Positions 3,121 through 23,331 of a stretch of 64,000 nt of DNA are shown piece after piece. The stretch is taken from NCBI GenBank assembly GCA_046328575.1, contig JAXLWI010000003.1:52-64051 (forward strand). Reading direction: 5' to 3'. Origin of the DNA: Anaerolineae bacterium. GTDB lineage: Bacteria > Chloroflexota > Anaerolineae > Fen-1058. The notes below the pieces were generated by a model. The model saw nothing but the letters and a program-made list of their open reading frames with translations, was not told where the DNA came from and ran no database searches. The number at the start of each line of letters is the position of its first letter. Positions within the stretch are counted from its first letter, which is position 1. The position numbers and the translations under genes are program-made.

Positions 3121-5199
3121 CTATTTTGTCGTGATATTCCAGTTGAAGTCGGCTTCTTCCGTGGTCTTGGGCGCCATCGCACTGATGACGATCTCCGCCC
3201 GCTTCAACTGACTCAGCGGCACCGTCCACTGCGCGGTATTATCGGCGGTGAGTGGCAACCGCGTCACCGTAGTCTGGCCGTCCTGTCCAAAACTGATCAG
3301 CTGCACCGCATAGGTTTGCGGCACAAAGTTATTGGTGCGCAGCCAGCCACCCGCCTGCCAGCCCGCCGAGCCGTTTTCGAAATCATCGTGATAGTTGATC
3401 TCCGGGATCGACACATCGTCGATGGCCATGCCGGGCAGGTTCACGGCTAGATCGTTGATCACCTCAAACCCGATCGTGATCTTCTTCCCCGCGTAATCGC
3501 TGAGATCGACGGTTTCTTCAACCCACTGGGGTTTATCGCCACCGCCGCTGTTGCCGGTGTAGCCCCAACCGTAATTCGCATTGATGGGATTGGTGTCGGT
3601 AGTCGATGGTGCTTGCAAAATCTTCCACGTCTTGCCGCCATCTTCGGACACCGTCAGATACGCGTAATCCCAGTCTTTTTCCAGTGAATACCACGTCCAG
3701 TAGGTAAGCGTCGCTTTGTTCACGCTGGTCAGATCGAAGTCGCGTGTCAGCGTGAGATCGGTCGTGTCGCCGCGATTGCTCCACATGAAGTATTGCCCGC
3801 TGTGCGGCTCCGCGCCGATCATGCGCGCTTTTGTCGAGCCGGCAAAATCGATCGAGACGTCTTTAGCCCCCTGCAATTCGATATAACGCCCGGCGTATTG
3901 ATGCACGTTGCTGCGCTCGGCAAACGGAAAGCGCTTGATCGACTGCTCGGGTTCCACCTGCGCTCGATCGGTTTGGGCGTAGCCATAGCGGCCGTTGTCG
4001 ATTGAAGGATTATCGAGCGTGCGCGCCACCAACCAATCGGCGACAAAATCGTCGACGGTCTTGCCCGGCTCCAACTTGTCCAGAACTTTCTGGATGCCAA
4101 TGAGTCCATTGGCGGGTTCAGCGGCTAGTGCTTGCACGCCTTTATCGCCGAAACGATCCCAGAAGTACAACATGAACGAAAAGGCTGTGCCGTAATTCTG
4201 CGCGTCGGCCACGCCGCCATCTGGCCACGAGTTGAGTTGGATGTCGGGCGTCCGCGCAGCAACAAGGTCCGCACCCGGATCATCGCCGTTAAGGAAGATG
4301 GCCAATTCCGACATGCCTTCGCTGACCCAGGTGTCTTCGTTCTGATCATCGCGGAACAAAATCATATGCTGAAATTCATGCGCCAGCACGCCATCGTAAT
4401 AGCCTGACCCCACCGCTTCCGCGCCGCCTACACCTTCGATGTCGATGTAAAACATATCTTTCTCGTTGGAGTCGGCGCGCACGGCGCTAGTCACTTGATC
4501 GACGCTGGAGAAATAGCCGCCTGACGAAGTGCCAGAGGTATTGAGAATATGAATGCGCGGATCGCAATCGATGCCGGGATTTTCTTCTTCGCCGAAGAGC
4601 GCGTGATTACGCGGATAGATTTTGTCGTTGAACGTCTGCGCGGAGCGGATCAACGCCTGCCGATCGACCATCTGCTCCCAACGGTTGTCCAGCCACATAT
4701 ACGCGTGATCGGTTTTAGCCACCAGTGTGGCCTCTACATCAAACGTCTTGAGGTTGTCGAAACTGAACACTTGAAACTTCGTTTGATCGCCAACATTGTA
4801 ATCGGGCGCCGTGGTGCACGTCTTATCGGGCGCATCGGCGGGCAAGCCCTTGAACTTGATCGCTAAGGCGCGCAGATCGCCCGGCGGAATGTCGGTGGTC
4901 TCAACCAATTGGGCGTTCGTGCGATCGGCGTCGGTGACGGCATCGCGGATAAGGCCGACCGTGTCAAACGTCGCGCCGCTGTCAGATGGAGTCGTGGGGA
5001 CGGTGGTGGCATCGGGTGCGGCCGTGGCCGCCGGCTGCGCGGGATCCGATCGGGGCACAGAATTGATCGGCGCGCGGGTCGGTTCGGGTACAGGCTGAAT
5101 CGGCTGCACATTGGTACACGCTGCCAACAGCGTTGTTACGAGCAGCAACAGCGTTAGCGATCGTTTCAAGGTGACTCTAATGTTCACAATCTCCTCCAA
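3121..5199 (-). CDS. Secreted lipoprotein zinc metallopeptidase (HExxH)
   Basis: 692 aa. Signal peptide with lipobox (LLAAC). Pro/Thr/Ala-rich linker. VLAHEFQHMILF zinc-binding HExxH motif. Family (M6/InhA-like or other) not resolved from sequence alone. Confidence 0.6.
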   Translation of the reverse strand: MEEIVNIRVTLKRSLTLLLLVTTLLAACTNVQPIQPVPEPTRAPINSVPRSDPAQPAATAAPDATTVPTTPSDSGATFDTVGLIRDAVTDADRTNAQLVETTDIPPGDLRALAIKFKGLPADAPDKTCTTAPDYNVGDQTKFQVFSFDNLKTFDVEATLVAKTDHAYMWLDNRWEQMVDRQALIRSAQTFNDKIYPRNHALFGEEENPGIDCDPRIHILNTSGTSSGGYFSSVDQVTSAVRADSNEKDMFYIDIEGVGGAEAVGSGYYDGVLAHEFQHMILFRDDQNEDTWVSEGMSELAIFLNGDDPGADLVAARTPDIQLNSWPDGGVADAQNYGTAFSFMLYFWDRFGDKGVQALAAEPANGLIGIQKVLDKLEPGKTVDDFVADWLVARTLDNPSIDNGRYGYAQTDRAQVEPEQSIKRFPFAERSNVHQYAGRYIELQGAKDVSIDFAGSTKARMIGAEPHSGQYFMWSNRGDTTDLTLTRDFDLTSVNKATLTYWTWYSLEKDWDYAYLTVSEDGGKTWKILQAPSTTDTNPINANYGWGYTGNSGGGDKPQWVEETVDLSDYAGKKITIGFEVINDLAVNLPGMAIDDVSIPEINYHDDFENGSAGWQAGGWLRTNNFVPQTYAVQLISFGQDGQTTVTRLPLTADNTAQWTVPLSQLKRAEIVISAMAPKTTEEADFNWNITTK

Positions 5200-5251
5200 A
5201 TAGTTAACCTAAACGCGGCGATTATACCATTCACGTTCCCTATAAAATGCA

Positions 5252-5284
5252 CATCGCTCGACCTGGGCAAAGCGTCGAGCGATG
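5252..5284 (-). terminator. Hairpin catcgctcgac-ctgggcaaagc-gtcgagcgatg (11-bp stem) downstream of the PDZ gene; stem sequence is shared with the hairpins in the 6421-6700 tandem repeat
   Basis: Perfect inverted repeat followed on the minus strand by tgcattttat. Stem CGCTCGAC/GTCGAGCG is identical to copy 2 of the tandem-repeat hairpin. Confidence 0.45.
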
Positions 5285-5306
5285 CGATGTTGAAAGACGA
5301 TTGAGG

Positions 5307-6326
5307 TTAACCGGTGAAGCCGGGGTTATCGTTATTGAAGCCCGGCGGCATTTGGAATTGTCGTTCGGCGGGTCGCTGCCCTAAGGTGACTTTAACTTCG
5401 CGCGAATCGGTCGGGCCGTTGGCCGTCCCTTTGACTACTGTCAGCGTGATCTCATCGCCAACTTTGAACTGCTGCACGGCATCGCGCAGTGTGTGCTGAT
5501 CATCGACGGCTGTGCCGTTAACGGCGGTGATGACGTCGCCCTTCTTCAGACCCGCCTTCGCCGCCGGACTGCCCGCCACAACGACCCGGATCAATGCGCC
5601 GGTTGTGCCGGTAATGCCTTCGCGCGCGGCCACATCAGCCGTGATCGATTCGAACTCCACACCCAGATATGGGCCGTTCGCCGCTGGCGCTGTTTGATCT
5701 TGCCCGTTGCCAAACGGCATCGGTACCTGCGAACCATCGGGCAATTGGAAATTGAAGTCTTGTGTCGCGGGCCGTTCGCCCAACTTCACTTTAACGTCGT
5801 GCGAATCGGTCGGACCATTGGCAGTACCTTTTACAATCGTCAACGTGATCTCATCGTTGGGCTTAGAATTCGCTACGCGGCTGCGGAGATCGTTCTGCGC
5901 GTCGACCGTCTGGCCATCGACAGCGGTGATCACCTCGCCCGCTTTGAGACCTGCCGTGGCGGCGGGGCTGCCCTCCACCACCGATCGGATCAACGCGCCC
6001 GTCGTGCCCGTGATGCCTTCGGTCGCGGCGAGTTCCGGTGTGATCATTTGATACTCAACACCCAAATACGCGCCGCCCGCCTGTGTCGGCTGTACCTGTC
6101 CAAAGGGTAAGGTAAAGCCCTGCGGGCCGTTGGAGTTGCCGCGATTCTGATCGGGTACAGGTGCGGCCGCGGCCGCCTGATTGGACGCCGCTTGCCGTGC
6201 GCCCTCGGCCTGACCCCAGCGATAGCCGATCAAACCGCCCGCGCCCAGTCCGGCGCCTAATAGCACCAATGCGCCAATGACAATCCCTAAGACTTGTTTG
6301 CCGCTGAATCGTGACTCGGTGGTCAT
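5307..6326 (-). CDS. Membrane-anchored protein with two tandem PDZ domains (no protease domain)
   Basis: N-terminal TM helix (VLGIVIGALVLLGAGLGAGGLIGY). Two near-identical PDZ units (GITGTTGALIRSVVEGSPAATAGLKAGEVITAVDGQTVD / GITGTTGALIRVVVAGSPAAKAGLKKGDVITAVNGTAVDD). Start placed at ATG 6326 (MTTESRF), preceded by GGAGG; the ORF-track start at 6371 lacks an SD. Confidence 0.7.
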   Translation of the reverse strand: MTTESRFSGKQVLGIVIGALVLLGAGLGAGGLIGYRWGQAEGARQAASNQAAAAAPVPDQNRGNSNGPQGFTLPFGQVQPTQAGGAYLGVEYQMITPELAATEGITGTTGALIRSVVEGSPAATAGLKAGEVITAVDGQTVDAQNDLRSRVANSKPNDEITLTIVKGTANGPTDSHDVKVKLGERPATQDFNFQLPDGSQVPMPFGNGQDQTAPAANGPYLGVEFESITADVAAREGITGTTGALIRVVVAGSPAAKAGLKKGDVITAVNGTAVDDQHTLRDAVQQFKVGDEITLTVVKGTANGPTDSREVKVTLGQRPAERQFQMPPGFNNDNPGFTG

Positions 6327-6420
6327 ACTCTTTTCGCCTCCAAATTTCTGGTCGAAGTATGCCACGCGCACGTTAAGATTTCGTAAGAAGGACTTGAAAG
6401 TTGCTTGAAAAGTGCGCTAA

Positions 6421-6700
6421 AACGCAAACCGCCCGACCTTGCCTAAGGGTCGGGCGATCTGCGTAGGAGGAAGGAAGTTGATGATAGTATCGATCCGTTG
6501 GCTTAAGCGCACATGAAAAAGAGTTGAAGGTTGATTGAGAGTTGGCCAACTTTCAAAGTTCGTGCCGTATAACGCAAATCGCTCGACCTTGCCTAAGGGT
6601 CGAGCGATTTGTGTAGGAGGAAGGAAGTTGATGATAGTATCGATCTGTTGGCTTAAATTCATATGAAAACGAGTTGAAAGTTGATTGAGAATTCGAGAGA
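6421..6700. repeat. Tandem direct repeat, 2 copies, period 150 bp (120 bp near-identical core). Each copy holds a 9-bp-stem hairpin and, on the + strand, AGGAGG followed by an 11-codon mini-ORF
   Basis: Copy 1 6421-6540, copy 2 6571-6690, ~93% identical. Hairpins are cgcccgacc-ttgcctaag-ggtcgggcg (6430-6456) and cgctcgacc-ttgcctaag-ggtcgagcg (6580-6606). The c->t change in the left arm is matched by a g->a change in the right arm (compensatory). Mini-ORFs MIVSIRWLKRT (6481-6516) and MIVSICWLKFI (6631-6666) lie 8 nt after AGGAGG. Confidence 0.8.
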
Positions 6701-6758
6701 CTGCGAACGCAGAATTCAGAACAGCGACTGCGTACGAACCCATCTACTCTCGATTGAC

Positions 6759-7655
6759 CTACAACTCCCGAGCGATCAGTGTGGCGACGCGGGCATTGTT
6801 GGCCAGCAGCGCAATGTTGGTCTTCATGCTCTCGCCGCCCGTCAGTTCGGCGACGTGCGCCAGCAGGAACGGCGTAATGGCCTTACCGCGCACACCCTGA
6901 TCTTCAGCCATTTTCAGCGCGGCGAGGATGGCTGGCTCGATGTCTTCGTTGGGGATGGCGAGTTCGGCAGGCACCGGGACACCGATCAGCACGCCGCCTT
7001 CCAGACCAAGTTGATACTTAGCGCGAATGATCGCCGCCGCGTCCGCCGCTGTATCGACGCGGGCATCGACGGGCAGGCCGCTGCTGCGCGAATAGAACGC
7101 CGGAAAGGTATCTGTGCCAAAGCCCAGCACGGGCACGCCGCGCGTCTCCAGCCATTCGAGCGTGAGCGGCAGATCGAGGATGGCCTTTGCGCCCGCGCAC
7201 ACGACAGTGACGGGCGTCTGCGCCAGTTCGGGCAAATCGGCGGACACATCGAACGGCTGCCCGCGGTGCACCCCGCCGATGCCGCCGGTGGCAAACACCT
7301 TGATGCCAGCCTGCGCGGCCACCCACATCGTCGCGGCGACGGTCGTCGCGCCATGGCCGCGCTGCGACACCACAATAGGCAAATCGCGGCGGCTGACCTT
7401 GCGGACACCGTCGGTGTTAGCTAGCAATTCCAGTTCGTGCGGCTCCAGCCCGGCGTGAATTTCGCCGTTCAAAATCGCGATGGTGGCGGGGACAGCACCG
7501 TTGTCACGGACCACAGCCTCAAGCTGGCGGGCCACGTCGAGATTGACAGGGCGCGGCAGACCGTGCGTGATCAGTGTCGATTCCAGCGCGACGACGGGCT
7601 GATGGTTGGTCAGCGCCTCGCGGACGGAGGCAGAGAGATGGAGGGTAATGGGCAT
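6759..7655 (-). CDS. psuG: Pseudouridine-5'-phosphate glycosidase
   Basis: 298 aa, MPITLHLSASVREALTNHQPVVALESTLITHGLPRP... Full-length match to the PsuG/indigoidine synthase A-like family. Confidence 0.9.
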   Translation of the reverse strand: MPITLHLSASVREALTNHQPVVALESTLITHGLPRPVNLDVARQLEAVVRDNGAVPATIAILNGEIHAGLEPHELELLANTDGVRKVSRRDLPIVVSQRGHGATTVAATMWVAAQAGIKVFATGGIGGVHRGQPFDVSADLPELAQTPVTVVCAGAKAILDLPLTLEWLETRGVPVLGFGTDTFPAFYSRSSGLPVDARVDTAADAAAIIRAKYQLGLEGGVLIGVPVPAELAIPNEDIEPAILAALKMAEDQGVRGKAITPFLLAHVAELTGGESMKTNIALLANNARVATLIAREL

Positions 7656-7994
7656 GATGAGGGGCCTCGTTTCGATAGATTCTAAACTATGCCGATTGTA
7701 ACTCGATTGTAATATGCTGAATAGTCAAACCCCAATGGATTTGAACAAACCGAGTCACGTTCAAGCAAAACACCAAGATCTCCTACCATTACTTCCAGTC
7801 TGCTGAAGGCAGCCATGCCTTGATGCCTGTAATCATTGTAAGAAAACCGCAACCATTTTGAAAGGCTTGAGTTATGCATTTTACAAGCATTACGCATATA
7901 ATTACAACACAGAATCGGTCCTATCATACAACTAGAAGTCTGATTACACTTTCTAGTCGTGTGAGGAGGAAGATTCTGACGTTACGGAGATGAC
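7656..7994. promoter_or_regulatory. 340-bp AT-rich divergent intergenic region: promoters for psuG (-) and the kinase operon (+); TATAAT at 7896-7901; palindrome ctagaa-N13-ttctag at ~7932-7956; SD GGAGA at 7985-7989
   Basis: Marked AT-richness compared with flanking coding DNA, -10-like hexamer, inverted repeat directly upstream of the operon start. Confidence 0.4.
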
Positions 7995-10900
7995 GTGATG
8001 TTAAACAAATCTAGATCCTCTTCCTCAGAATCACAAGATTTTGCCAATGGCCTCAGTCTGATGAGCCAGATTGGTCAGGCGATTGTTGCCACACTGGAGC
8101 CAGGTAAACTGATTGAGGAAATCTACCATCAGACACACAAAGTCATCCCGGCCAACATCTTTACCCTTTCTCTGTTTACCGATGACCCGAATTGGATAGA
8201 TATGTTTGCGGTGGATAAGGGGCAAGTCGTCCAGGAGCGGCGTCGCATCGGCACCCTCACCCGATGGGTGGTCGAGCAGCGCACGCTGTTTTCTACGCCC
8301 GATGATCAAGTACAACTTCCTCCTGTACCAGTCACACGAATCGAAACCGACACCGTTGAAGAACCGCGTGCCTATATATTGATCCCGATGATCACCCACG
8401 ACAAAGTTGTAGGCGTCATCTCAGTTCAAAGTTATGAGCCGGATGCTTTCAATGACATGCATCTTGCCATGCTATCGGCCATCGCCAGCCACTCGGCGAT
8501 TGTGATTGAGAATAACCGTCTACTGGCCCAAGCGCAACACCGTGCCGCCGAACTGGCCAGTTTGGAACGGATCGGCTACGAACTGGCACGCCTGACGAAC
8601 ATTGAGGATGTGCTGAAGAAGATCATTACTGAGGCCAAAGACCTGCTCACAGCCGATTCCATGTCGATTTTTGCGTATGATGAGCGGCGCGGCAAGTTTC
8701 GCCCCCCGGCTTTTATTCTCAGGCCTGGAGCCGCCGGGCCTGTCGCGCGTGAACGACCACCGCGCGAGATTGGTCTGACCATCAGGGTTGTTCGACTTCA
8801 CTGTGCCATTTTTACCGAAGTCGCGGCGGACGGTCAAGTACTGTTTGCGGAGACCCCGATCGGCCAAAACGTCGAAGTGGCTCAACGGAAGACCTTTGAG
8901 TTTACCGACCAGGACACGCTCGAATTCTTGCAGGCGCAGAATGTGCGCTCATCCATTGGCTTTCCACTTAGCGCGGGTCGGGATATTGTAGGCGTGCTGT
9001 ATATTAACTACCAACGGCCGCATACCTTCGGCCAGGATGAGTTCCAAACCATCGGCCGATTGGCGCAATATGCGGGCACGGCGATCCAACGGGCCAACGT
9101 CTACGGCGAGATCCGAGCGTTGCATCAGGCGGGCCATGCGCTGACCGGGCAAACCGAGATGCGAGCCGTGCTCAACAAACTCGTCGAGTATGGACATGAA
9201 GTGCTGGGGGCCGATCTGATTACGGTCTTTCCCTATCATGCCGGGGCGGACGAGTTTGAACTGCCGCCGGTCGTGTCAGGCGTGGCCCTGAAACCGGACC
9301 AACTTTTGCCGCCGCAAATCAAGTCCGATGATACTGTACGCCGGATCGTAACAGAGAAAAGCGCCCACTTCAGTCGAGACGCGCAGATAGATCCTTTGCT
9401 GGCAGGGTCCGATCCGGCTCTGCGGGAGTCTCGCTTTGTGAGTCGGGAGCAGATTGTCTCGGCGGCGGCGATTCCTTTACGTACCAACGATGATGTCGTA
9501 GGCGCACTGTTTTTCAATTATCGAACCCGGCAACGATTTGGCTCTCATCAGCGGACACTGATCGAAACCTTTGCGGCGTATGCGGCGACGGCCATTCAAC
9601 GGGCTCGATTGCTAGACCGCCGCCTCAAGGAGTTGCGGGCGCTGGCTGAGATTGATGCGGCGATCACATCGGGCAGTCTGCGAGATGTGTTGGACAAAAT
9701 CATTCAGTCAGCGTGTGAGATCGTGGGCGCCAAAGATGGCAATATTCTCTTGTTACATGAAAGTGGAGAGTATCTGTATCTTGCCGCTCGGCAGGGTGAG
9801 GCGTGGCGCAGTGGGGCGCCGGAACGATTTGAAACTGGTACGAGCAGTGTGACTGGCTGGGTTGCCGCGCACAAAAAAACAGCCCGGATTGGCAATGTCC
9901 GTACCGAGGAACCGTGGAAGGACATCTACCTCGAAGTAATCCCTGACATCCAATCGGAATTGAGTGTGCCAATCCTTGATGAGCAGAAGCAGCTGGTTGG
10001 GATCATCTTTTTAGACAGCAAGGCGGCTCACGCTTTTTCGGCCGACGACGAGCGGCTGCTGGAGGCTCTGGCCGGGCAAGCCTATATTGCCATTCGCAAC
10101 CGGCGTCAATTTGAAGCCGAGCAACGCGCACTCCGAGAACTGCACCTGTTGAGAGAGATCGATAACGCCGTCAGTTCGACGCTGAATACCCAAGAAGTCT
10201 TGCAGCTGATTGTGGACAAGATCGATACGTTAATTGATGCCCCGATCTTCGTCGTGATGCTGGCTGATGAACGGCGAGGAGATTTGTATCAAGCCGCCGG
10301 GCGAGGAGTAGTTGCAGATCTCAAGTATCATCGTCAGAAGATAGGTACAGGGATCGTAGGCCAGGTGGCGCTGACCCATCAAAGTGTGCGGATTGGAGAT
10401 GTTAATGCATTAGTAGGAGAGGTGGATTATCTGCAAGTCGTATCAGACACTCGCTCGGAGTTGGCGGTTCCCATCCTGCAAGGTGACCAACTGGTGGGGG
10501 TGCTGAACGTTGAAAGTCCTCAAGTGAACGCGTTCAATGCGGACGATGAGCGACTGTTGAACAGCCTAGCCTCACTGGCAGTCGTCGGGATCCAAAACTC
10601 ACGTCTCTATGAACAGGAGCAGCGTTCCCGAAAGGTGATAGACATCTTGCGCGACGTCGATAAAGCGATCGCTTTCTTGGCTGTTAATCCGCCCGATCAT
10701 CCCGTGCAAAGCCTCGCGGAGGCATTGAGTCCGGTGCTCCAAATTATCCTCAACCGTGGCCTGGAAGCTGTCGGTGCGGTGGTAGGTAGTATCATGTTGT
10801 ATGATGAGGCGACCGATGACTTATATATGGCGGCCGAGCAGGGAGTCTTGTCAGAGTATCGAAACGCGCGACAGAAGATCGGCCAAGAAAAAGGTATCAT

Positions 10901-12887
10901 TGGAAAGGTAGCGTTAGAGAGACAAATATTGCGGATAGATGACGTAACCGCTACACCTTGGAACACCCAGTATCAAGAGTATACGCCCGGAATGCGTTCA
11001 GAATTGGCTGTACCGCTGATGCACCAAAACCGATTAGTGGGTGTCCTCAACGCTGAAAGCCCTCGGATGAGCGCTTTCGGACCTGACGAGGAAAACCTGT
11101 TCGAGACCTTAGCCGGGCAGGCCGTGATCGCATATTTGAATGCGGAAAGATATCAAGCCCTGCAAACGCTCCGAGATATCAATCAATTGCTAGCTTCAGG
11201 CTATGATACCAGTGAAGTGCTGAAGTTGATCTTGGAGTATGCCTGCACCTTCTTCCGGGTCAAGTGGGGAAACCTACGGGTATATGATCCCAGTGGCCGC
11301 CCTACGCGTGACTACGTACTGGTCACGTCAGCCTTGGATCACGCTCCTGACATCCGGGTGATTGATTTACGATTGGCCACTCATGAACGTTGGCTCGATA
11401 GAGGCATCGTGGACTGGGTTGCGCAGCATCGCACGCTGTTTCGCTCTCAGGGTGATGTGCGCAACGATCAACGCTTTTTGAGCTTTCCAGGCCTTGAGAT
11501 TCGTTCGGAGATGACCGCGCCGCTTTCAGTTGGGCCGGATCTAGTGGGCGTGCTGAACCTGGAGAGCGAACGTCCCGGTGCCTTTGATGAAGAGGATGAA
11601 AATCGAATGGGGGACTTCAGCGCGCAGGCCGCGCTGGCCGTGCAGAATGCACGTAACCTGGCCGAGTTGCAAGAGACACAGGAGCGCTTTTCAGCCCTCT
11701 ATGAAGTGGGGAGCGAGATTATCACGGCTCCCTTGAATGAACAGAAGATTCTTGAAATTGCCCTGAATGCCGGGCTAAACCGCACCGGGGTCTTCCACGC
11801 AATTGCCTGGCAACCCGATCGAGACGGCAAACAATTGGAAGCGCGTCTGGTGCTGGGCGAGCAGCAATCCGAGCCGCACGAGCCTATTCCCCGCGATGGC
11901 ACACTTGTTAACAGCGTGGCATGGCAAAAGCGGTCAGAGATCCTGGTCGACGACGTGACAGCGCCACCGGAGGGAGTAAAGCATCGGCCCGGATATACGC
12001 GGACAGGCTCAATGCTGGTTATGCCGATGATGGCAGGCGGCGAGTATTTCGGCAACCTGGACTTTCGGCACAAAGACCCTCACGGATTCAAACAGGAGGA
12101 AATCCGCCTGCTCAATGGCTTGACTGCGCAAGCGGCCAATGCAATACGTCGCATCCGCCATGAAAGAGAACTGGACCAATTCCGACAACGTGAGCACGAA
12201 GCGCGAGCCATGACAGATATTGGTATGGCTGCCGGCGAATTGGGGCACCGGATTGGTAATAAACTTGGCCTATTCAAAACTCATATTGAGGCAATCAAAG
12301 AACAGATTGGCTCGAGTTATCAAGATATCACTCGACGACTGGACTATATGTCAACAAATGTGCAATACTTGCTAACGTTAACCCAACAGTTGAAGCAAGA
12401 ATTGAATGACCGAACGAGTGGAGTTAAGAAGCAGAAAAAGGATTATTCTGCAGCAGTTGTGTTATTTGAAGCATGTAACTCGAAGACTCCGTCGGAATTC
12501 ATTCATGTGCAAATGGACCCTCCAACAGACGACCTTATAGTGAGGGCGGATGATAGCATTTTTGATGCTTTCATTAATATCTACAGTAATGCAATTGAAG
12601 CGCTTGAGTTGCAGGGCGGCACAATCTATATGAGTGCCTGTCAAATTAATGGTTGGATTGAATTCAGGATAGCAGATGATGGCCCGGGCATAGAAGCAGG
12701 AAAACTCGACAAGATCTTTAACTTGTTCTATTCGACCAAGCAAAATAGTCTGGGTTTTGGATTGTTTAGCGCTAAACAACGGGTATTGGCCAACGGTGGA
12801 CAAATCGAAGTACACAGTAAGATTGGAGAAGGGACCACGTTTATAATTCGACTGCCGTCAGCGTTAGCCAAAGAGGTGCGATCATGA
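7995..12887 (+). CDS. Sensor histidine kinase with eight tandem GAF domains and an NtrB-like kinase core (H-box GELGHRIGNKLG, N/G1/G2 boxes NIYSNAIEA/DDGPGI/GFGLF)
   Basis: 1630 aa. Repeated GAF signature (SELAVPIL.GD.LVGVLNVES.....F...DE.LL) about 8 times. C-terminal HATPase_c. Probable start ATG 7998 (GTG 7995 in the ORF track). Stop overlaps the next start (ATGA). Confidence 0.85.
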   Translation: MMLNKSRSSSSESQDFANGLSLMSQIGQAIVATLEPGKLIEEIYHQTHKVIPANIFTLSLFTDDPNWIDMFAVDKGQVVQERRRIGTLTRWVVEQRTLFSTPDDQVQLPPVPVTRIETDTVEEPRAYILIPMITHDKVVGVISVQSYEPDAFNDMHLAMLSAIASHSAIVIENNRLLAQAQHRAAELASLERIGYELARLTNIEDVLKKIITEAKDLLTADSMSIFAYDERRGKFRPPAFILRPGAAGPVARERPPREIGLTIRVVRLHCAIFTEVAADGQVLFAETPIGQNVEVAQRKTFEFTDQDTLEFLQAQNVRSSIGFPLSAGRDIVGVLYINYQRPHTFGQDEFQTIGRLAQYAGTAIQRANVYGEIRALHQAGHALTGQTEMRAVLNKLVEYGHEVLGADLITVFPYHAGADEFELPPVVSGVALKPDQLLPPQIKSDDTVRRIVTEKSAHFSRDAQIDPLLAGSDPALRESRFVSREQIVSAAAIPLRTNDDVVGALFFNYRTRQRFGSHQRTLIETFAAYAATAIQRARLLDRRLKELRALAEIDAAITSGSLRDVLDKIIQSACEIVGAKDGNILLLHESGEYLYLAARQGEAWRSGAPERFETGTSSVTGWVAAHKKTARIGNVRTEEPWKDIYLEVIPDIQSELSVPILDEQKQLVGIIFLDSKAAHAFSADDERLLEALAGQAYIAIRNRRQFEAEQRALRELHLLREIDNAVSSTLNTQEVLQLIVDKIDTLIDAPIFVVMLADERRGDLYQAAGRGVVADLKYHRQKIGTGIVGQVALTHQSVRIGDVNALVGEVDYLQVVSDTRSELAVPILQGDQLVGVLNVESPQVNAFNADDERLLNSLASLAVVGIQNSRLYEQEQRSRKVIDILRDVDKAIAFLAVNPPDHPVQSLAEALSPVLQIILNRGLEAVGAVVGSIMLYDEATDDLYMAAEQGVLSEYRNARQKIGQEKGIIGKVALERQILRIDDVTATPWNTQYQEYTPGMRSELAVPLMHQNRLVGVLNAESPRMSAFGPDEENLFETLAGQAVIAYLNAERYQALQTLRDINQLLASGYDTSEVLKLILEYACTFFRVKWGNLRVYDPSGRPTRDYVLVTSALDHAPDIRVIDLRLATHERWLDRGIVDWVAQHRTLFRSQGDVRNDQRFLSFPGLEIRSEMTAPLSVGPDLVGVLNLESERPGAFDEEDENRMGDFSAQAALAVQNARNLAELQETQERFSALYEVGSEIITAPLNEQKILEIALNAGLNRTGVFHAIAWQPDRDGKQLEARLVLGEQQSEPHEPIPRDGTLVNSVAWQKRSEILVDDVTAPPEGVKHRPGYTRTGSMLVMPMMAGGEYFGNLDFRHKDPHGFKQEEIRLLNGLTAQAANAIRRIRHERELDQFRQREHEARAMTDIGMAAGELGHRIGNKLGLFKTHIEAIKEQIGSSYQDITRRLDYMSTNVQYLLTLTQQLKQELNDRTSGVKKQKKDYSAAVVLFEACNSKTPSEFIHVQMDPPTDDLIVRADDSIFDAFINIYSNAIEALELQGGTIYMSACQINGWIEFRIADDGPGIEAGKLDKIFNLFYSTKQNSLGFGLFSAKQRVLANGGQIEVHSKIGEGTTFIIRLPSALAKEVRS

Positions 12888-14921: not shown

Positions 14922-16487
14922 ATGCGGGTTCTCATAGTAGATGACGAGCAAGAATGGCGCGAGAATCTTTGTGACACCGTTCGATTGGCTATTCACCAAA
15001 CCGTCGAGTGTGTGTTAGCCGCCAGTCTTGAAACGGCTCAAGCCGAACTCAAGCAGGCATCATTTGCGCTTATTCTTAGCGACCTTGGTATTCCGTCCCG
15101 TGATGGCATTTCTGACATATCCCCTGAAAACGGCATGTTGCTCTTGCGACTGATTCGAAGCAACGGGCTTAATCAAGGGGCCATTGGTATCGTCGTTACA
15201 TCTCGTGGAACGCCGACTCGCATGCGGGAAGTGCTTCTTAGGCTCAATTTCTCTGATTTCCTAGAAAAAGACAAATTCGATCAAAAAGAAGCTCAGGAAG
15301 TCATTCGCGCGGCACTTTTCACTGGAGCGTATCAACGTGTTGCCGCGTCACAAGCAACCAAATTTGATTTAACATTTGTGTTGACGAATACCCACTGCGT
15401 CTTCGCAGAGTTGTCTGGTCCGGAACGGTTTGGAGATGTAATTCCCGATCAGCCACTGGTCTTTGAGGCGGAGGAATCGATCCGCCGAGCAGACCGTATT
15501 CGCAAGCTCGTCACTGGTGATCTGCGCCGTGAGATGATTGATGAATGGCGGACTGATGCGCGTGAGACTGGAATGGGCCTCTATCGAAGTCTGTTCGGCG
15601 ACTTGTCATTTGGCGGCATTTTGCGGGCTGGCTCCGAAGGCCCGAAACAGTTTCGCGATCTCCGGCTGTGTTTTCGTGGCACACGCCGTTCGTTGGCTGT
15701 GCCCTTTGAACTCCTACATAATAATTCGGAATACCTGGCGTTAAATCATCCCCTTGTCCGCCAGGTCACCTCGGATCACGCGTCGGCTCGCAAGGCTGCC
15801 GCTTTTCGGACTTCACTTCTCAAACTGCACGAGTCGGATAAGACCCTCAACGTACTCCTGCTTGCTTCAAACGGTGGCGATGATCTGGAGGCGGCTGATC
15901 AGGAAGTGACCCAACTTAAGACCCGCATCGATGACCGTTTAGCCGAGACGGGGGTCCGTCGTAATGTATTAGCTATCTCTACGGCTGAGGCGACCTATAC
16001 ACGCGTCGAGTCAGTGCTGCGCGAACGAAAATGGCATGTCATTCACTATGCCGGGCATGGCCGTTGGAATCCGGATCTCCCGGAGGATAGTGCGTTAATC
16101 TTCATGCATAACGACAAGCCACGGTCGATGCCGGCCAGTGTGTTGCATGATCTTCTGAAAGATTCAGAGACTCTGCTGTTCTTCCTAAATGGGTGCTGGG
16201 GTGCGCGCACGGCCGAACATTCAGAGCAAGGCGACTTGTATGGGTTGATGGACAGCCTAGTACAGGCAGGCACGCCCATTGTTTTGGGCCACCGCTGGAG
16301 TGTATCAGACGGCGCCGCCCGTGATTTAGCGTTGACCTTTTACAATGACCTGCTCCAAAATTGGTCGGCTGAGGATGCGCTCCTCTTGGCGCGGAAAGCC
16401 GTCGTGAGCGAGTCCCCATTCCACGGAGACGACCCGGGTTGGGCCTCGCCTATTTTGGTGGTACAGACTGCATACACCCGCTGCTAA
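14922..16487 (+). CDS. Response regulator: receiver domain fused to a CHAT (caspase-like) peptidase domain
   Basis: Receiver motifs (VLIVDDEQEW, LILSDLGIP, VVTSRGT). C-terminal CHAT signature: VIHYAGHGRW (catalytic His) and LLFFLNGCWGART (catalytic Cys). Confidence 0.75.
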   Translation: MRVLIVDDEQEWRENLCDTVRLAIHQTVECVLAASLETAQAELKQASFALILSDLGIPSRDGISDISPENGMLLLRLIRSNGLNQGAIGIVVTSRGTPTRMREVLLRLNFSDFLEKDKFDQKEAQEVIRAALFTGAYQRVAASQATKFDLTFVLTNTHCVFAELSGPERFGDVIPDQPLVFEAEESIRRADRIRKLVTGDLRREMIDEWRTDARETGMGLYRSLFGDLSFGGILRAGSEGPKQFRDLRLCFRGTRRSLAVPFELLHNNSEYLALNHPLVRQVTSDHASARKAAAFRTSLLKLHESDKTLNVLLLASNGGDDLEAADQEVTQLKTRIDDRLAETGVRRNVLAISTAEATYTRVESVLRERKWHVIHYAGHGRWNPDLPEDSALIFMHNDKPRSMPASVLHDLLKDSETLLFFLNGCWGARTAEHSEQGDLYGLMDSLVQAGTPIVLGHRWSVSDGAARDLALTFYNDLLQNWSAEDALLLARKAVVSESPFHGDDPGWASPILVVQTAYTRC

Positions 16488-16513
16488 AGTCAAACCGTAG
16501 TCAGTATTGCCCA

Positions 16514-19500
16514 ATGAAAACTACCTCTATAGCATCTAACTCGAGGGCGCAAGGTCTTGCCGACGGCCTCAGCCTAATGAGCCAGATTGGTCAGGCGATC
16601 GTTGCCACGCTGGAGCCAGGTGAACTCATCGAGGAAATCTACCATCAGACCCACAAGGTCATCCCGGCCAACACCTATACCCTCTCTTTGCTCACCGATG
16701 ACCCAAATTGGATAGACATGTTTGCGGTCGATGAAGGACAAATTGTCCAGGAGCGGCGGCATATCGGCACCCTCACCCGATGGGTGGTCGAGCATCGCAC
16801 ACCGTTTGCTACGCCCGATGATCAAAGGCAACCTCCTCCGGTAGCGGTCACGCGAATCGAGACTGGTGTCGCTGATGAACCGCGGGCCTACATTCTCATC
16901 CCGATGGTTACCCACGATAAAGTCGTCGGCGTCATCTCGGTTCAAAGTTATGAGCCGGATGCTTTCAATGACGTGCATCTTGCCATGCTGTCGGCCATCG
17001 CCAGCCACTCGGCGATTGTGATAGAGAATAACCGTCTGCTGGCGCAGGCCCAGCATCGTGCTGCCGAACTGGCCAGTTTGGAGCGGATCGGCTACGAACT
17101 GGCGCGCCTGACGAACATCGAGGATGTGCTCAAGAAGATCATTACCGAGGCCAAAGACCTGCTCAACGCCGACTCCATGTCGATCTTTGCGTATGATGAG
17201 CGGCGCGGCAAGTTTCGACCCCCGACCTTTCTTCTCAAACCCGGAGCCGTCGGGCCGGTCGCACGTGAACGACCACCGCGCGAGGCTGGTCTGACGATCA
17301 GGATTGTTCGACATCACTGTGCCATTTTTACCGAAGTCAAGGCGGACGGTCAAGTGCAGTTTGCAGAGATCCCGATCGGTCAAAACTTCGAAGTGGCACA
17401 ACGGAAGACCTTTGAGTTTACCGACCAGGACACACTCGAATTCTTGCAGGCGCAGAATGTTCGCTCGTCCATCGGCTTTCCACTCAGCGCGGGTCGGGAT
17501 ATTGTGGGCGTGCTGTACGTCAACTACCAGCAGCCGCATGCCTTTGGCCAGGATGAGTTGCAGACCATTGGTCGATTGGCGCAATATGCGGGCACGGCGA
17601 TCCAACGGGCCAATGTGTATGGTGAGATCCGAGCGCTGCATCAAGCGGGCCACGCGCTGACCGGGCAAACCGAGATGCGGGCCGTGCTCAACAAACTCGT
17701 GGAATATGGGCACGAGGTGCTAGGGGCCGATCTGATTACGGTCTTCCCTTATCATGCCGGGGCGGACGAATTCGAACTGCCGCCGGTCGTGTCGGGCACG
17801 GCTTTGGCCCCCGACAATCTCTTACCGCCACAAATCAGGTCCGATGATACTGTACGCCGGATCGTGACCGAGACAAGCGCCCACTTCAGTCGGGATGCGC
17901 AGACGGATCCTTTGTTGGCAGGGTTCGATCCGGTCTTGCGGCAGTCCCGCTTCGTCACTCGCGAGCAGATTGCATCGGCGGCGGCGATTCCCTTGCGAAC
18001 CAATGGTGATGTCGTCGGCGCTCTGTTCTTCAATTATCGCACCCGGCAACGATTTGGTTCTCATCAGCGTACGCTGATCGAAACCTTTGCGGCGTATGCG
18101 GCGACGGCTATTCAACGGGCCCGATTGCTAGACCGCCGCCTCAAGGAGTTGCGTGCGCTGGCCGAGATTGATGCGGCGATCACATCGGGCAGTCTGCGAG
18201 ATGTGCTGAACAAAATCATTCAGTCAGCGTGTGAGATCGTGGGCGCCAAAGATGGCAACATTCTGTTGTTGCACGAAAGCGGGCAGTATCTGTATCTTGC
18301 TGCCCGTCAAGGTGAGGTGTGGCGCAGTGGCGCGCCGGAACGATTTGAGATTGGTAAGACCGGCGTGCAGGGCTGGGGCGCCGTGCACAAGAAACCAGCC
18401 CGGATTGGCAATGTGCATACCGAGGAACCGTGGAAGAATATTTACCTCGAAGTGATCCCCGGCATCCAATCGGAATTGAGTGTGCCGATCTTGGACGAGG
18501 AGAAGCAACTGGTTGGGATCATCATTTTGGAAAGTAAGGCGGCTCACGCCTTTTCGGCGGACGATGAGCGGTTGCTCGAGGCCTTGGCCGGGCAAGCCTA
18601 TATTGCCATTCGCAACCGGCGTCAATTCGAGGCTGAGCAGCGCGCGCTCCGCGAACTGCATCTGCTGAGAGAGATTGACAGCGCCGTCAGTTCGACACTC
18701 AACCATCAGGCGGTGCTGCAATTTATTGTAGACAAGAGCGATGTTCTGATTGATGCGCCTATCTTCACAGTGATGCTGTATGACGAACGGCGCGGCGATT
18801 TGTATCAAGCAGCGGGACGAGGCATAGTTGCAGATCACAAGTATCATCGTCAGAAGATGGGTACGGGGATCGTAGGGCAAGTGGCGTTGACACGCAGGAG
18901 CGTGCGGGTCGGTGATGTCACTACACTTGCGCAGAATGAAGGCTTTCTACCAGATATGCTCGATACTCGTTCAGAGCTAGCGGTTCCCATCCTGCAAGGT
19001 GACCAATTTGTTGGCGTGCTGAACGTCGAAAGCCCTGAAGTTGACGCGTTCAATGCGGACGATGAACGACTGTTGAAAAGTCTGGGATCGCTGGTCGCTG
19101 TCGCGATCCAAAACAGCCGCCTCTATGAACAGGAACAGCGCGCCCGCCAGGTGATTGATATCTTGCGCGAAGTCGACCAGGCGATTGCCTTCTTAGCAGT
19201 GACTCAACCGGAGAACCTGGCAGACGAATTGAGCCCCATACTGCAAATCCTCCTCAATCGTGGCTTGGATGCGGTGCACGCGCCGGCTGGCAATATTATG
19301 CTGTATGATGATGCCACCGATGATTTATACATGGCGGTCGAGCGTGGTGTGCTGCCCGAACACCGCACCGCCCGCCAGAAGATCGGCGAGGGCGTCGTGG
19401 GCCGCGTCGCAATTGATAAACGAACGTTGCGTATAGATGATGTGAATGTGCCGCCGTGGGATACAGTCTATCAAGGCTACATCTCCGACGTTCGATCTGA

Positions 19501-21430
19501 ACTCGCCGTGCCACTGGTATACAAAGACCGCCTGGTCGGCGTCCTCAACGCCGAAAGCCCACTGGTAAGCGCGTTCGGACCTGAAGATGAGGACCTCTTC
19601 GAAGCCCTGGCCGGGCAAGCCGTGATTGCCTATTTGAACGCCGAACGGTATCAGGCCTTGCAAACCCTTCGCGAAGTCAACCAATTGTTGGCCTCAGGCC
19701 ATGACTCCAACGACGTGCTGAAGTTGATCCTTATCTATACCTGTACCAACTTCCGAGTGGAGTGGGGGAACTTGCGGCTATTTGACCATACAGGACAGCC
19801 GATCCTCGATTACGTCCTGGTTACCTCGGCGCTGGGCATTGACCCGGAAGTACGGGTGATTGAAATTCGACGCGCAACTCATGAAAAATGGCTAGAGAAG
19901 GGCATCGTCAGCTGGGTCGCACAACAACGTGAACTGTTCCGCTCGCAGGGCAATGTGCAGGCAGATCCGCGCTTTCAGAGCTATCCTGGCCTCGAGATTC
20001 GTTCGGAAATGGCTGCGCCGCTGTTGGTTGGCTCAGATCTAGTTGGCGTGTTGAACCTGGAAAGCCAACGTCTAAATGCATTTGATGCAAACGATGAAGA
20101 CCGCATGCGCGACTTCAGTGCGCAGGCCGCACTGGCCGTGCAGAATGCGCGTAATTTGGCCGAGTTGCAAGAGAGCGAGGGGCGCTTTTCAGCCCTCTAT
20201 GAAGTAGGGAGTGAGATTATCACGGCTCCTTTGGATGAACTCAAGATCCTTGAGATTGTTCTGAGTGCCGGACTGAACCGCACGGGGGGCTTCCACGCAA
20301 TTGCCTGGCAACCCGATCGAGAGGGCAAACAATTGGAGGCGCGTCTGGTGCGGGGCGAGCAGCAAGCCGAGCCGCATGAGCCTATTGCACGCGACAGCAC
20401 ACTCGTTAACAGCGTGGCATGGCAAAAGCGGTCAGCGATCCTGGTCGACGATGTGACCGTGCCACCGGAAGGGACAAAGCATCGGCCTGGACATACGCGG
20501 ACCGGCTCAATGCTGGTGGTGCCGATGATGGCAGGGGAAGAGTATTTCGGTAACCTGGATTTTCGGCACAAAGACCCGCACGGATTCAAACAGGAAGAGA
20601 TTCGATTACTCAATGGCTTGGCCGCGCAGGCCGCCAATTCGATACGCCGTATCCGCCGTGAGAATGAGTTGAAGTCAATCTTACAGAAACAGTTTAACGA
20701 ATTACAAGATGCTTATGATGAATTAAGGATCGCTGACCGGCAAAAGTTGGAGTTTCTCGCGATTGCCTCTCACGAGCTGCGCAAACCATTAACTCCACTT
20801 CGTGTTGTCTTAGAACGGGCCGTTTTGGGTGAATACTCGCCATTAGAATTGCTGGATAAAATGCGGCTCGCCCTTGATCGTACCCAGCATCTAACAGGTA
20901 TCGTCGATCAACTTCTGAATATCGCTAGGATTGAAGCTGGCAAGATTAAGCCTGAGTTTGGAACTCATAGTGTAGTTGACTTGATAAAAAGATCGTTAAC
21001 AAGTATTCAGCATGTTGCCGAGAATAAAGGCATTCAGCTAATATCTGAATTGCCAACCGAATCGATCACCGCCGAAATCGATCAAGGTAAAATTAGCCAA
21101 GTGCTTGATAACCTCCTAGACAATGCTCTCAAACATACCGAGGCAGGCGGTTGTATTACAGTTTCATGTATTCACCTCAAGCCTGAAGACGACGTCATCC
21201 TCTGCGTCCGTGACACTGGAGAAGGAATACCAGAGAAGGAATACAAGCGAATCTTTGACTGGTTTTATCAGGTCGATCCTTCCCTGACGCGCTCCATTGA
21301 AGGTTTGGGCGTTGGGTTGTATGTCGCTAAAAAGTATATCGATATGCATGGCGGTCAGATCACGGTGAAAAGCGAGGTCGGCAAAGGCAGCACCTTCACT
21401 GTCTTGTTGCCGGCACGTCAGAAGGCATAA
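16514..21430 (+). CDS. Sensor histidine kinase, paralog of 7995-12887 with eight GAF domains but a classical HisKA (LEFLAIASHELRKPLTPL) + HATPase_c core
   Basis: Residues ~1-1340 are ~85-90% identical to the first kinase, then diverge into a PhoR/EnvZ-type core. Start set at ATG 16514 (MKTTSIAS...) by alignment with the paralog; the ORF-track start at 16439 overlaps the previous gene. Confidence 0.85.
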   Translation: MKTTSIASNSRAQGLADGLSLMSQIGQAIVATLEPGELIEEIYHQTHKVIPANTYTLSLLTDDPNWIDMFAVDEGQIVQERRHIGTLTRWVVEHRTPFATPDDQRQPPPVAVTRIETGVADEPRAYILIPMVTHDKVVGVISVQSYEPDAFNDVHLAMLSAIASHSAIVIENNRLLAQAQHRAAELASLERIGYELARLTNIEDVLKKIITEAKDLLNADSMSIFAYDERRGKFRPPTFLLKPGAVGPVARERPPREAGLTIRIVRHHCAIFTEVKADGQVQFAEIPIGQNFEVAQRKTFEFTDQDTLEFLQAQNVRSSIGFPLSAGRDIVGVLYVNYQQPHAFGQDELQTIGRLAQYAGTAIQRANVYGEIRALHQAGHALTGQTEMRAVLNKLVEYGHEVLGADLITVFPYHAGADEFELPPVVSGTALAPDNLLPPQIRSDDTVRRIVTETSAHFSRDAQTDPLLAGFDPVLRQSRFVTREQIASAAAIPLRTNGDVVGALFFNYRTRQRFGSHQRTLIETFAAYAATAIQRARLLDRRLKELRALAEIDAAITSGSLRDVLNKIIQSACEIVGAKDGNILLLHESGQYLYLAARQGEVWRSGAPERFEIGKTGVQGWGAVHKKPARIGNVHTEEPWKNIYLEVIPGIQSELSVPILDEEKQLVGIIILESKAAHAFSADDERLLEALAGQAYIAIRNRRQFEAEQRALRELHLLREIDSAVSSTLNHQAVLQFIVDKSDVLIDAPIFTVMLYDERRGDLYQAAGRGIVADHKYHRQKMGTGIVGQVALTRRSVRVGDVTTLAQNEGFLPDMLDTRSELAVPILQGDQFVGVLNVESPEVDAFNADDERLLKSLGSLVAVAIQNSRLYEQEQRARQVIDILREVDQAIAFLAVTQPENLADELSPILQILLNRGLDAVHAPAGNIMLYDDATDDLYMAVERGVLPEHRTARQKIGEGVVGRVAIDKRTLRIDDVNVPPWDTVYQGYISDVRSELAVPLVYKDRLVGVLNAESPLVSAFGPEDEDLFEALAGQAVIAYLNAERYQALQTLREVNQLLASGHDSNDVLKLILIYTCTNFRVEWGNLRLFDHTGQPILDYVLVTSALGIDPEVRVIEIRRATHEKWLEKGIVSWVAQQRELFRSQGNVQADPRFQSYPGLEIRSEMAAPLLVGSDLVGVLNLESQRLNAFDANDEDRMRDFSAQAALAVQNARNLAELQESEGRFSALYEVGSEIITAPLDELKILEIVLSAGLNRTGGFHAIAWQPDREGKQLEARLVRGEQQAEPHEPIARDSTLVNSVAWQKRSAILVDDVTVPPEGTKHRPGHTRTGSMLVVPMMAGEEYFGNLDFRHKDPHGFKQEEIRLLNGLAAQAANSIRRIRRENELKSILQKQFNELQDAYDELRIADRQKLEFLAIASHELRKPLTPLRVVLERAVLGEYSPLELLDKMRLALDRTQHLTGIVDQLLNIARIEAGKIKPEFGTHSVVDLIKRSLTSIQHVAENKGIQLISELPTESITAEIDQGKISQVLDNLLDNALKHTEAGGCITVSCIHLKPEDDVILCVRDTGEGIPEKEYKRIFDWFYQVDPSLTRSIEGLGVGLYVAKKYIDMHGGQITVKSEVGKGSTFTVLLPARQKA

Positions 21431-22974: not shown

Positions 22975-23331
22975 ATGTCTGACCAGCAACCTTCCGATAG
23001 TATCATCGTTTACACCATGCCAGACGTAAGCGAAAAGACCAATGATTATGATCAGATGCGCGGTGATTATGATCAAGAGAGAAAGTGGTTTGGTTCTCCA
23101 AAGCCAACTACAGTCTCATCCGTGAAACTTCAACAGCAGATCAATGTCTTTCTAGTCCAAATGGGCGAAGCGTTGAAAGAAACACCGGCTGAAGTAGGCG
23201 GATTCAAATTAAATGAAATCGAAATCTCGGCCGGAATCACGGCCGGCTTGGAGATTGCGCTGATTGGGTTGGGCAGCGCCAAAGGTGAACTCACGGGGGG
23301 ATTACGCTTTACGTTTAAGCGTTCAGAATGA
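22975..23331 (+). CDS. Small (118 aa) protein resembling the Trypco2 / CU044_2847-type domain that co-occurs with trypsin/CHAT peptidases in conflict systems
   Basis: Strong SD AAGGAGA 6 nt before ATG 22975. C-terminal half (FKLNEIEISAGITAGLEIALIGLGSAKGELTGGLRFTFKR) matches the alternating beta-strand pattern I recall for Trypco2; from memory, not a search. Stop overlaps the next start (ATGA). Confidence 0.4.
   Translation: MSDQQPSDSIIVYTMPDVSEKTNDYDQMRGDYDQERKWFGSPKPTTVSSVKLQQQINVFLVQMGEALKETPAEVGGFKLNEIEISAGITAGLEIALIGLGSAKGELTGGLRFTFKRSE

Follow-up and report, generated by a model that had tools for sequence, protein, structure and literature searches.

In an Anaerolineae genome, a sequence of 150 bp stands twice in tandem between psuG and a gene for a PDZ-domain protein, and each copy carries a stable hairpin. 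Does this repeat act as DNA, as RNA or as a short coding sequence, and on which strand? An initial annotation of the 64,000-nt stretch analysed here (the window) had raised several readings at once, among them tandem terminators after psuG, a pair of mini-genes on the plus strand and a dispersed family of hairpin repeats. We propose, with a probability of roughly 55%, that the repeat comprises two copies of a previously undescribed small RNA (sRNA) gene on the minus strand, whose promoter is shared with the PDZ gene. The genes that frame the repeat in the window all lie on the minus strand:

3121 to ~5187, minus strand: gene for an InhA-like_MAM lipoprotein
5307-6326, minus strand: gene for a membrane-anchored protein with two PDZ domains (Pfam PDZ_2/PDZ_6/PDZ; homologues and synteny)
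6327-6758: intergenic region between the PDZ gene and psuG
6759-7655, minus strand: psuG (Pfam Indigoidine_A)

A tandem repeat confined to one locus

A repeat search delimited two 132-nt copies, at 6412-6543 and 6562-6693, with a spacing of 150 bp and 88% identity; an ungapped comparison of 6418-6544 with 6568-6694 (127 nt) gave 88.2%. The tandem repeat itself is therefore real, although the earlier figure of ~93% overstated the identity slightly. Tandem Repeats Finder returned nothing for this region. Between the unit nearer psuG (unit A) and the unit nearer the PDZ gene (unit B), the predicted RNA reaches 91.5% identity, as against 83.9% for the promoter-like part. Each unit contains an inverted repeat of 17 nt per arm around a 9-nt loop, with arms at 6422-6438/6448-6464 in unit B and 6572-6588/6598-6614 in unit A, and the GC-rich 17-bp stems have predicted folds of −25 to −32 kcal/mol. 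The hairpin had been described with a 9-bp stem, but it has 17 pairs; the compensatory exchange of C6433 for T6583 together with G6453 for A6603 is present in the sequence as claimed. These elements are not due to chance: 0.00 occurrences of the 33-nt core are expected in a shuffled window, and the 17-nt motif GTTGAAAGnnGATTGAG, which lies beside all three hairpins of the region and once more at 6393, has a shuffling expectation of 0.06. A near-perfect 22-bp palindrome, TTGAGAGTTGGCCAACTTTCAA, spans the junction of the two units (6535-6556); it was not seen at other loci and may be a by-product of the duplication junction.

Relatives were collected through homologues of the PDZ protein and through the 19-nt hairpin core in species genomes and metagenomes; about 16 of the 21 metagenome matches to this 19-mer were discarded as unrelated sequences, some of them adjacent to tRNA genes. 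The element occurs in about 17 distinct loci (designated below by L numbers), all of them in metagenome-assembled genomes of Anaerolineae/Thermoflexales, and the match of the window's PDZ protein likewise comes from Anaerolineae metagenome-assembled genomes. The gene order psuG, PDZ, InhA is conserved among relatives. Every true tblastn match lies at this psuG-(PDZ)-InhA locus, and the hairpin core is found in 5 of 185,579 species genomes, each time only there. Within the 64 kb, pattern and covariance-model searches found three copies, all within 1.5 kb. The element is thus specific to its locus and not REP/MITE-like, contrary to the suggestion of a dispersed repeat family.

The units are arranged in several ways around the PDZ gene. 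One to three independent units precede it in the window and in L002, L003, L007, L008, L009, L033 and L034; a single unit lies between PDZ and InhA in L035; and in L010/L017 and L019 a unit is retained without PDZ. PDZ protein identities among the relatives range from 51 to 82%. Unit B of the window is 89% identical to the unit of L002, and identity to L003a is 88%, much as between A and B (88%); five species have kept two or three diverged copies, so the duplication is old and maintained. Two of the collected loci have further features of their own. L001, a Logan contig of 1290 nt, corresponds to window 5241-6530 and represents a near-identical strain with several synonymous differences in PDZ; its 204 nt upstream of PDZ, comprising unit B and the PDZ promoter, are identical to the window, and it ends inside the repeat on one side and right after the tail of the PDZ terminator on the other. 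In L003, a gene for a LysR-type regulator and an IS1595 transposase in two pieces (5254-7262) are inserted between PDZ and the InhA-like gene.

A covarying hairpin behind an anti-Shine–Dalgarno stretch

A covariance model of the family delimits one predicted RNA in each unit:

6570-6629, minus strand: predicted small RNA A (~60 nt); covariance model hit at 6568-6638(−), 89.3 bits
6419-6479, minus strand: predicted small RNA B (~61 nt); covariance model hit at 6418-6488(−), 90.1 bits

RNA A, whose start was placed by assumption 7 nt after the −10 hexamer and whose ends are predicted, contains the CU-rich anti-Shine–Dalgarno (anti-SD) sequence CUUCCUUCCUCCU at 6615-6627, the hairpin at 6572-6614 and the tail UAUAC; its predicted fold (−25.2 kcal/mol, z −6.7) leaves the CU-rich part unpaired. 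RNA B has its CU-rich stretch at 6465-6477, its 17-bp hairpin at 6422-6464 and the tail UUU, with a predicted fold of −32.2 kcal/mol (z −6.0). Across the family, the −10 hexamer is followed by 6 to 20 nt, the sequence UCCUUCCUCC, 4 to 6 nt, the 17-bp hairpin and a U-rich tail. The CU-rich stretch UCCUUCCUCC, an anti-SD, is nearly invariant in 24 sequences although it was never part of any search pattern, and it is unpaired, ahead of the hairpin, both in the predicted folds and in the consensus fold. Its flanks differ by subtype (CAACUUCCUUCCUCCUAC in type I, AAUCCUUCCUCCCAAUCU in type II).

The hairpin covaries. In the alignment of the 24 sequences, 95.1% of cells are paired and 8 of the 17 pairs show double compensatory changes; none of 500 shuffles reached the observed pairing, and controls with slid partners stayed at or below 46% paired. 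Selection on RNA structure, first suggested by a single compensatory pair in the window, is thereby supported across homologues. The lower stem differs by subtype (CGCAG/UUGCG versus UCUAA/UUAGA), and the upper stem varies in the members L033b, L009a and L036, which were found through their proteins. Most members were collected by exact match to the loop and upper stem, so the invariance of these two parts is partly a matter of ascertainment, a bias from which the lower stem and the four protein-anchored loci are free.

In the window copies the two strands differ little in how well they fold, so these copies alone cannot decide the strand. On the gene strand of the family, G-U pairs outnumber A-C pairs by 27 to 8; this bias, together with the U-rich tails and the orientation of the genes, assigns the structure to the minus strand, which is also the strand towards which the hairpins had originally been read. 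The U-tract is interrupted in unit B (UUUGCGUUUU), poor in unit A (UUUGCGUUAUAC, UUAUAC) and poor in the second subtype (AUUUAGAUCA). Hairpins with U-tails do follow psuG, in keeping with the idea of tandem terminators after that gene, but because each has its own promoter-like block upstream, they are better read as the ends of separate small transcription units. Intrinsic terminators are matched in part: in the direction of the preceding gene, a GC-rich stem is followed by a U-rich tail, with which an A-rich 5′ flank pairs. The differences are the interrupted or weak U-tract, the promoter that accompanies each hairpin, and the cross-species conservation of the loop and of the 10-nt CU-rich stretch upstream, which is not known from ordinary terminators.

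A search of Rfam, covering the window and 10 related loci, returned no family at its gathering score; the matches were chance ones to snoRNAs and sRNAs (E 2-8), and none was relevant at E ≤ 10 within 5100-6900. Pairing of the CU-rich stretch with the loop as a pseudoknot (AGGCAAGG) was dropped, as L036 and other forms have unrelated loops. When the window was searched for targets by duplex energy, the matches were self-antisense sites or else weak and non-specific. With the start regions of PDZ, InhA and psuG from seven loci, the duplexes with PDZ and InhA are only of SD length, and neither gene was kept as a specific target, the seed pairing being no better than that for other genes with a strong SD. 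The best non-self partner of the seed beside a start codon is GAGGAGGAAGA at 7961-7975 (+), at about −20 kcal/mol, in the 5′ region of a divergent giant ORF of 1630 aa (7995-12887); the neighbour in this position differs at other loci.

A promoter-like block in common with the PDZ gene

Upstream of each predicted RNA, and again upstream of the PDZ gene, the minus strand carries a homologous block:

6636-6694, minus strand: promoter-like block of unit A, nearer psuG (position weight matrix (PWM) score 71.8 bits)
6486-6544, minus strand: promoter-like block of unit B, nearer PDZ (PWM 82.0 bits; consensus)
6356-6414, minus strand: predicted PDZ promoter, a homologue of the promoters in the units (PWM 31.9 bits)

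The 59-nt matrix was built from 31 instances, taken from sRNA units and PDZ genes. A scan of the 64 kb with it gave exactly three sites, the two units and PDZ, with a maximum of −4.6 in the shuffled window. The consensus on the minus strand is CATCTTTCAAtCAACCTTCAACTCnnnTTTCATsTGnGnTTAAGCC, then 9 nt, then (G/C)ATACT. Within it, four pentamer boxes (TTCAA, TTCAA, TTCAT and TTAAG) follow one another with an exact period of 11 bp across the 31 instances, and the last lies 9-10 bp upstream of the (G/C)ATACT hexamer, a −10-like element whose second base (A) and sixth base (T) hardly vary among the instances. Unit A has the boxes CTCAA, TTCAA, TTCAT and TTAAG at the same 11-bp period, with GATACT at 6636-6641; in unit B the boxes occupy 6535-6539, 6524-6528, 6513-6517 and 6501-6506, with GATACT at 6486-6491; and PDZ has TTCAA, TTCAA, CTTAC and TTAAC, with CATACT at 6356-6361. 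Every genome has the block 30-35 nt ahead of the PDZ start codon, even L036, in which the upstream neighbour of PDZ is not psuG. RNAalifold predicts no base pair or consensus RNA structure in the block, which therefore behaves as a signal at the level of DNA. Since the PDZ gene carries this same promoter, the RNAs and the PDZ protein would be made on the same signal, and PDZ is apparently co-regulated with the small RNAs.

No canonical −35 element was found in the block, and a consensus promoter and terminator scanner called neither a σ70 promoter nor a terminator at the units, the latter partly because the 9-nt loop exceeds the scanner's limit. Instead, the boxes with their 11-bp period take the place of the −35 at a fixed distance from the −10, a layout typical of promoters activated by winged-helix (OmpR/PhoB-type) regulators. 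Readings as an ECF-sigma, sigma-B/F-type, FliA-type or sigma-54 promoter were rejected, as the spacings did not match their consensus sequences. The InhA-like gene has a canonical extended −10, TGGTATAAT, that is conserved across loci, so the sRNA/PDZ promoter represents a distinct class, probably one that needs an activator. In the window, the InhA-like promoter TGGTATAATCGCC lies at 5221-5229 (−), directly after the PDZ terminator, and the same extended −10 sequence is kept in L002, L010, L019, L035 and L036. The 5′ UTR of the InhA-like gene also holds a conserved hairpin, GACTTCCGAAGC...GCTTCGGAAGTTT, in L004 (5225-5265) and L034 (3745-3790), which resembles a leader terminator and is absent from the window.

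No candidate regulator accompanies the locus consistently. The window encodes several paralogous STAND NTPases (nSTAND1/AAA_16; 23328-24743(+), 25683-27053(−) and ~27327-28346(−)), with homologues among the relatives in L035 (16-1371) and L010 (2950-4299). The protein encoded at 23328-24743, the one that was scanned with Pfam, ends in an OmpR-type winged helix (Trans_reg_C), and a homologue of this STAND–winged-helix type adjoins psuG, directly upstream, only in L010/L017 and L035. On this weak link, regulation of the 11-bp-period promoter by such a protein is possible. Elsewhere in the window, a response-regulator receiver is fused to a CHAT protease-like domain (21449-22963 (+)) next to a 1663-aa ORF (16439-21430 (+)), which is unrelated to the sRNA finding. 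Octamer repeats of TCGCTGA(C/T)T occur just upstream of the sRNA promoters in L003 (3720-3790) and L009 (2525-2560 and 2700-2740) and are absent from the window.

The layout of the units recalls the CiaR-dependent csRNAs of streptococci, in which the −10 is preceded, at a distance of 10 bp, by an NTTAAG-N5-TTTAAG box (PMC3091779). Those RNAs come from short intergenic genes, often in several copies per genome, and combine an unpaired anti-SD with a terminator, and htrA belongs to the same CiaR regulon (PMC3091779). Here, too, hexamer direct repeats with an 11-bp period end about 10 bp upstream of the −10 with a TTAAG-like proximal box, an anti-SD stretch predicted to be unpaired precedes a putative terminator hairpin, and a PDZ-domain envelope protein (HtrA in Streptococcus) would stand under the same promoter. 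Set against the CiaR box, the block has the same hexamer-N5-hexamer form, a 9-10 bp gap and a proximal nTTAAG, but its upstream box is TTTCAT and it has two further boxes, so that there are four in all, the distal ones TTCAA/TTCAT rather than TTTAAG. There are other differences: the phylum is Chloroflexota and not Firmicutes, no sequence or Rfam similarity was found, the RNA has one stem-loop instead of two with its seed at the 5′ end, and the PDZ protein has no protease domain. Given the differences in model match, number of stem-loops, distal boxes and phylum, we do not claim membership of the csRNA family.

Alternative readings, 3′-UTR forms and a proposed origin of the units

Several other explanations would account for parts of these observations. 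It is unlikely that the units are inert leftovers of a PDZ-cassette duplication that lost its ORF, now serving only as a terminator or insulator after psuG and giving rise to a functionless short RNA. A unit does look like a PDZ-type promoter joined to a PDZ-type 3′ end, its hairpins would stop psuG transcripts, the third hairpin copy in the window resembles a decayed unit, and the CU-rich stretch of the 3′-UTR copy in L031 is degenerate; yet the CU-rich stretch is near-invariant in 24 sequences despite 51-82% PDZ identity, conservation is higher in the RNA than in the promoter spacer, five species keep two or three diverged copies, the unit survives where PDZ has been lost, and the psuG genes of several relatives seem, when read by eye, to have a terminator hairpin of their own upstream of the unit. 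Rather unlikely, too, is that the RNA works by binding protein instead of by base-pairing, with the CU-rich stretch or the loop CUUAGGCAA binding or titrating an RNA-binding protein, perhaps a pyrimidine binder such as S1, or a chaperone. The 9-nt loop is strongly conserved in most members and no specific mRNA target could be predicted, both of which fit such a role, but the loop conservation largely reflects how the members were collected, and L036, the 3′ UTR of L034 and L009a keep the CU-rich stretch with other loops. A perfect anti-SD is, moreover, the commonest type of seed in sRNAs of the Gram-positive type (PMC3091779), which favours base-pairing. In most loci the units lie directly upstream of PDZ, where they could form a cis-acting leader or attenuator in which transcription normally ends at the hairpin but continues into PDZ in certain circumstances. 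We consider this improbable because the last hairpin is followed by a complete promoter copy that belongs to PDZ itself, units are also found downstream of PDZ (L035) or without it (L010 and L019), and no alternative antiterminator pairing was predicted.

The remaining readings place the function on the plus strand or in the DNA, and both seem very improbable. The plus strand had been read as a Shine–Dalgarno sequence followed by a mini-gene for MIVSIRWLKRT or MIVSICWLKFI, and the elements themselves are there: the two window units, like the majority of type I units, have AGGAGG followed after 10 nt by an ATG that opens an 11-codon ORF, which might even form a type I toxin–antitoxin-like pair with the minus-strand RNA as antisense. 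However, AGGAGG is simply the CU-rich stretch in reverse complement, and the ORF corresponds in the same way to the segment between the −10 and the TTCAT box, both included. Only type I units keep the ORF, a mutation has removed its ATG in L009b, and type II and 3′-UTR forms have no ORF or unrelated ones, so that neither frame nor length nor residues are conserved across homologues as they would be for a small peptide or a type I toxin. The conserved residues MIVS, LK and T-stop map to the −10, TTAAG and TTCAT boxes, which also precede PDZ in the absence of any ORF, and the variable codons fall in the promoter spacer; because conservation is limited to one subtype and the conserved codons coincide with promoter boxes, we reject the mini-ORF. 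Inspection of the sequences revealed no conserved promoter on the plus strand, the G-U bias of the stem favours the minus strand, and typical type I toxins are longer and less polar than an 11-residue peptide of this kind. A perfect SD with a short ORF can thus mirror an anti-SD sRNA and its promoter. As for the DNA, three hairpin copies within 1.5 kb and a stem that is a near-perfect inverted repeat would suit a dispersed REP/MITE-like repeat or a palindromic protein operator. Against the former stand the confinement of the core to this locus in the window and in the five species genomes, and the lack of terminal repeats and target duplications; against the latter stand conservation that is compensatory and not base-specific, the G-U strand bias and the asymmetric conserved loop.

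The third hairpin of the region follows the PDZ gene:

5242-5305, minus strand: region of the PDZ terminator hairpin; covariance model 28.8 bits

A third copy of the stem, claimed from the start, is found at 5255-5281 with no mismatches, and it scores against the family model at 5243-5314 (−) (28.8 bits, E 5e-4). The hairpin at 5249-5286 has 13 bp, a tail AUUUUAU and a loop unlike that of the sRNA hairpin, to which it is homologous, and it has no CU-rich stretch, whereas relatives carry a CU-rich stretch plus hairpin in this position. The window copy is the PDZ terminator and has lost its CU-rich stretch. At 5289-5305, 2-6 nt from the terminator hairpin, stands GTTGAAAGACGATTGAG, a remnant of the distal promoter boxes, and the arrangement looks like a full unit with an internal deletion of about 85 bp.

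In L004, L028 and L036, and beside an upstream unit in L007 and L034, the element takes the form of the 3′ UTR of the PDZ mRNA: the CU-rich stretch and hairpin begin 5-8 nt after the PDZ stop codon and share the terminator of the mRNA, so that these five loci hold a conserved seed and terminator within an mRNA 3′ UTR. The covariance model also found 3′-UTR copies on which it had not been trained, in L031 (with the CU-rich stretch degenerate) and L007, and reading of the sequences confirmed them. The most distant locus, L036 (51% PDZ identity), has the 3′-UTR form only. CpxQ arises from the 3′ UTR of cpxP (PMC4817254), and by their position the 3′-UTR forms described here resemble such sRNAs released from the 3′ ends of envelope-quality-control mRNAs, CpxQ and MicL among them (PMC4817254, PMC4102768; overview in PMC9438474). 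The window and most relatives differ in that the RNA lies upstream of the gene and has a promoter copy of its own.

From these elements a mechanism can be outlined. Each 150-bp unit would be a small minus-strand gene consisting of a promoter, a transcript of about 60 nt and a hairpin with a U-rich tail. Its promoter, with no recognisable −35, would offer four boxes spaced by 11 bp to a winged-helix activator; the unpaired 5′ part of the transcript would expose the anti-SD UCCUUCCUCC, and the 17-bp GC-rich hairpin and U-rich tail would terminate it. The RNA would most likely pair with the ribosome-binding sites of target mRNAs and block their translation. As the CU-rich stretch and hairpin of relatives form the 3′ UTR of the PDZ mRNA, the units look like an sRNA born in a 3′ UTR. 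The sRNA may have started there and later come under a PDZ promoter copy of its own, probably through a cassette duplication in which the ORF was lost, before the tandem duplication. A 3′-UTR seed that acquired a promoter and was then duplicated would be the simplest history of the locus. Tentatively, and as something we hold to be possible rather than probable, we further suggest that a winged-helix regulator switches on the PDZ protein together with one to three anti-SD sRNAs, convergent with the CiaR–HtrA–csRNA arrangement, and that the series of loci captures the birth of an sRNA from an mRNA 3′ UTR by promoter duplication with all intermediates preserved in lineages alive today.

Judged from comparative sequence data, the element would be a new family within a familiar kind of sRNA, and the evolutionary series that it presents is unusually clear. 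Our search of the literature found no report of a regulatory RNA of such a kind in Chloroflexota, including Anaerolineae and Thermoflexales. For these lineages, known here only from metagenome-assembled genomes, the locus gives a well-supported candidate sRNA with a clear seed. The promoter motif could define a whole regulon by genome scanning, and the natural variants of the element (3′-UTR, promoter-bearing, tandem and PDZ-less) show how sRNA genes can arise from mRNA 3′ ends.
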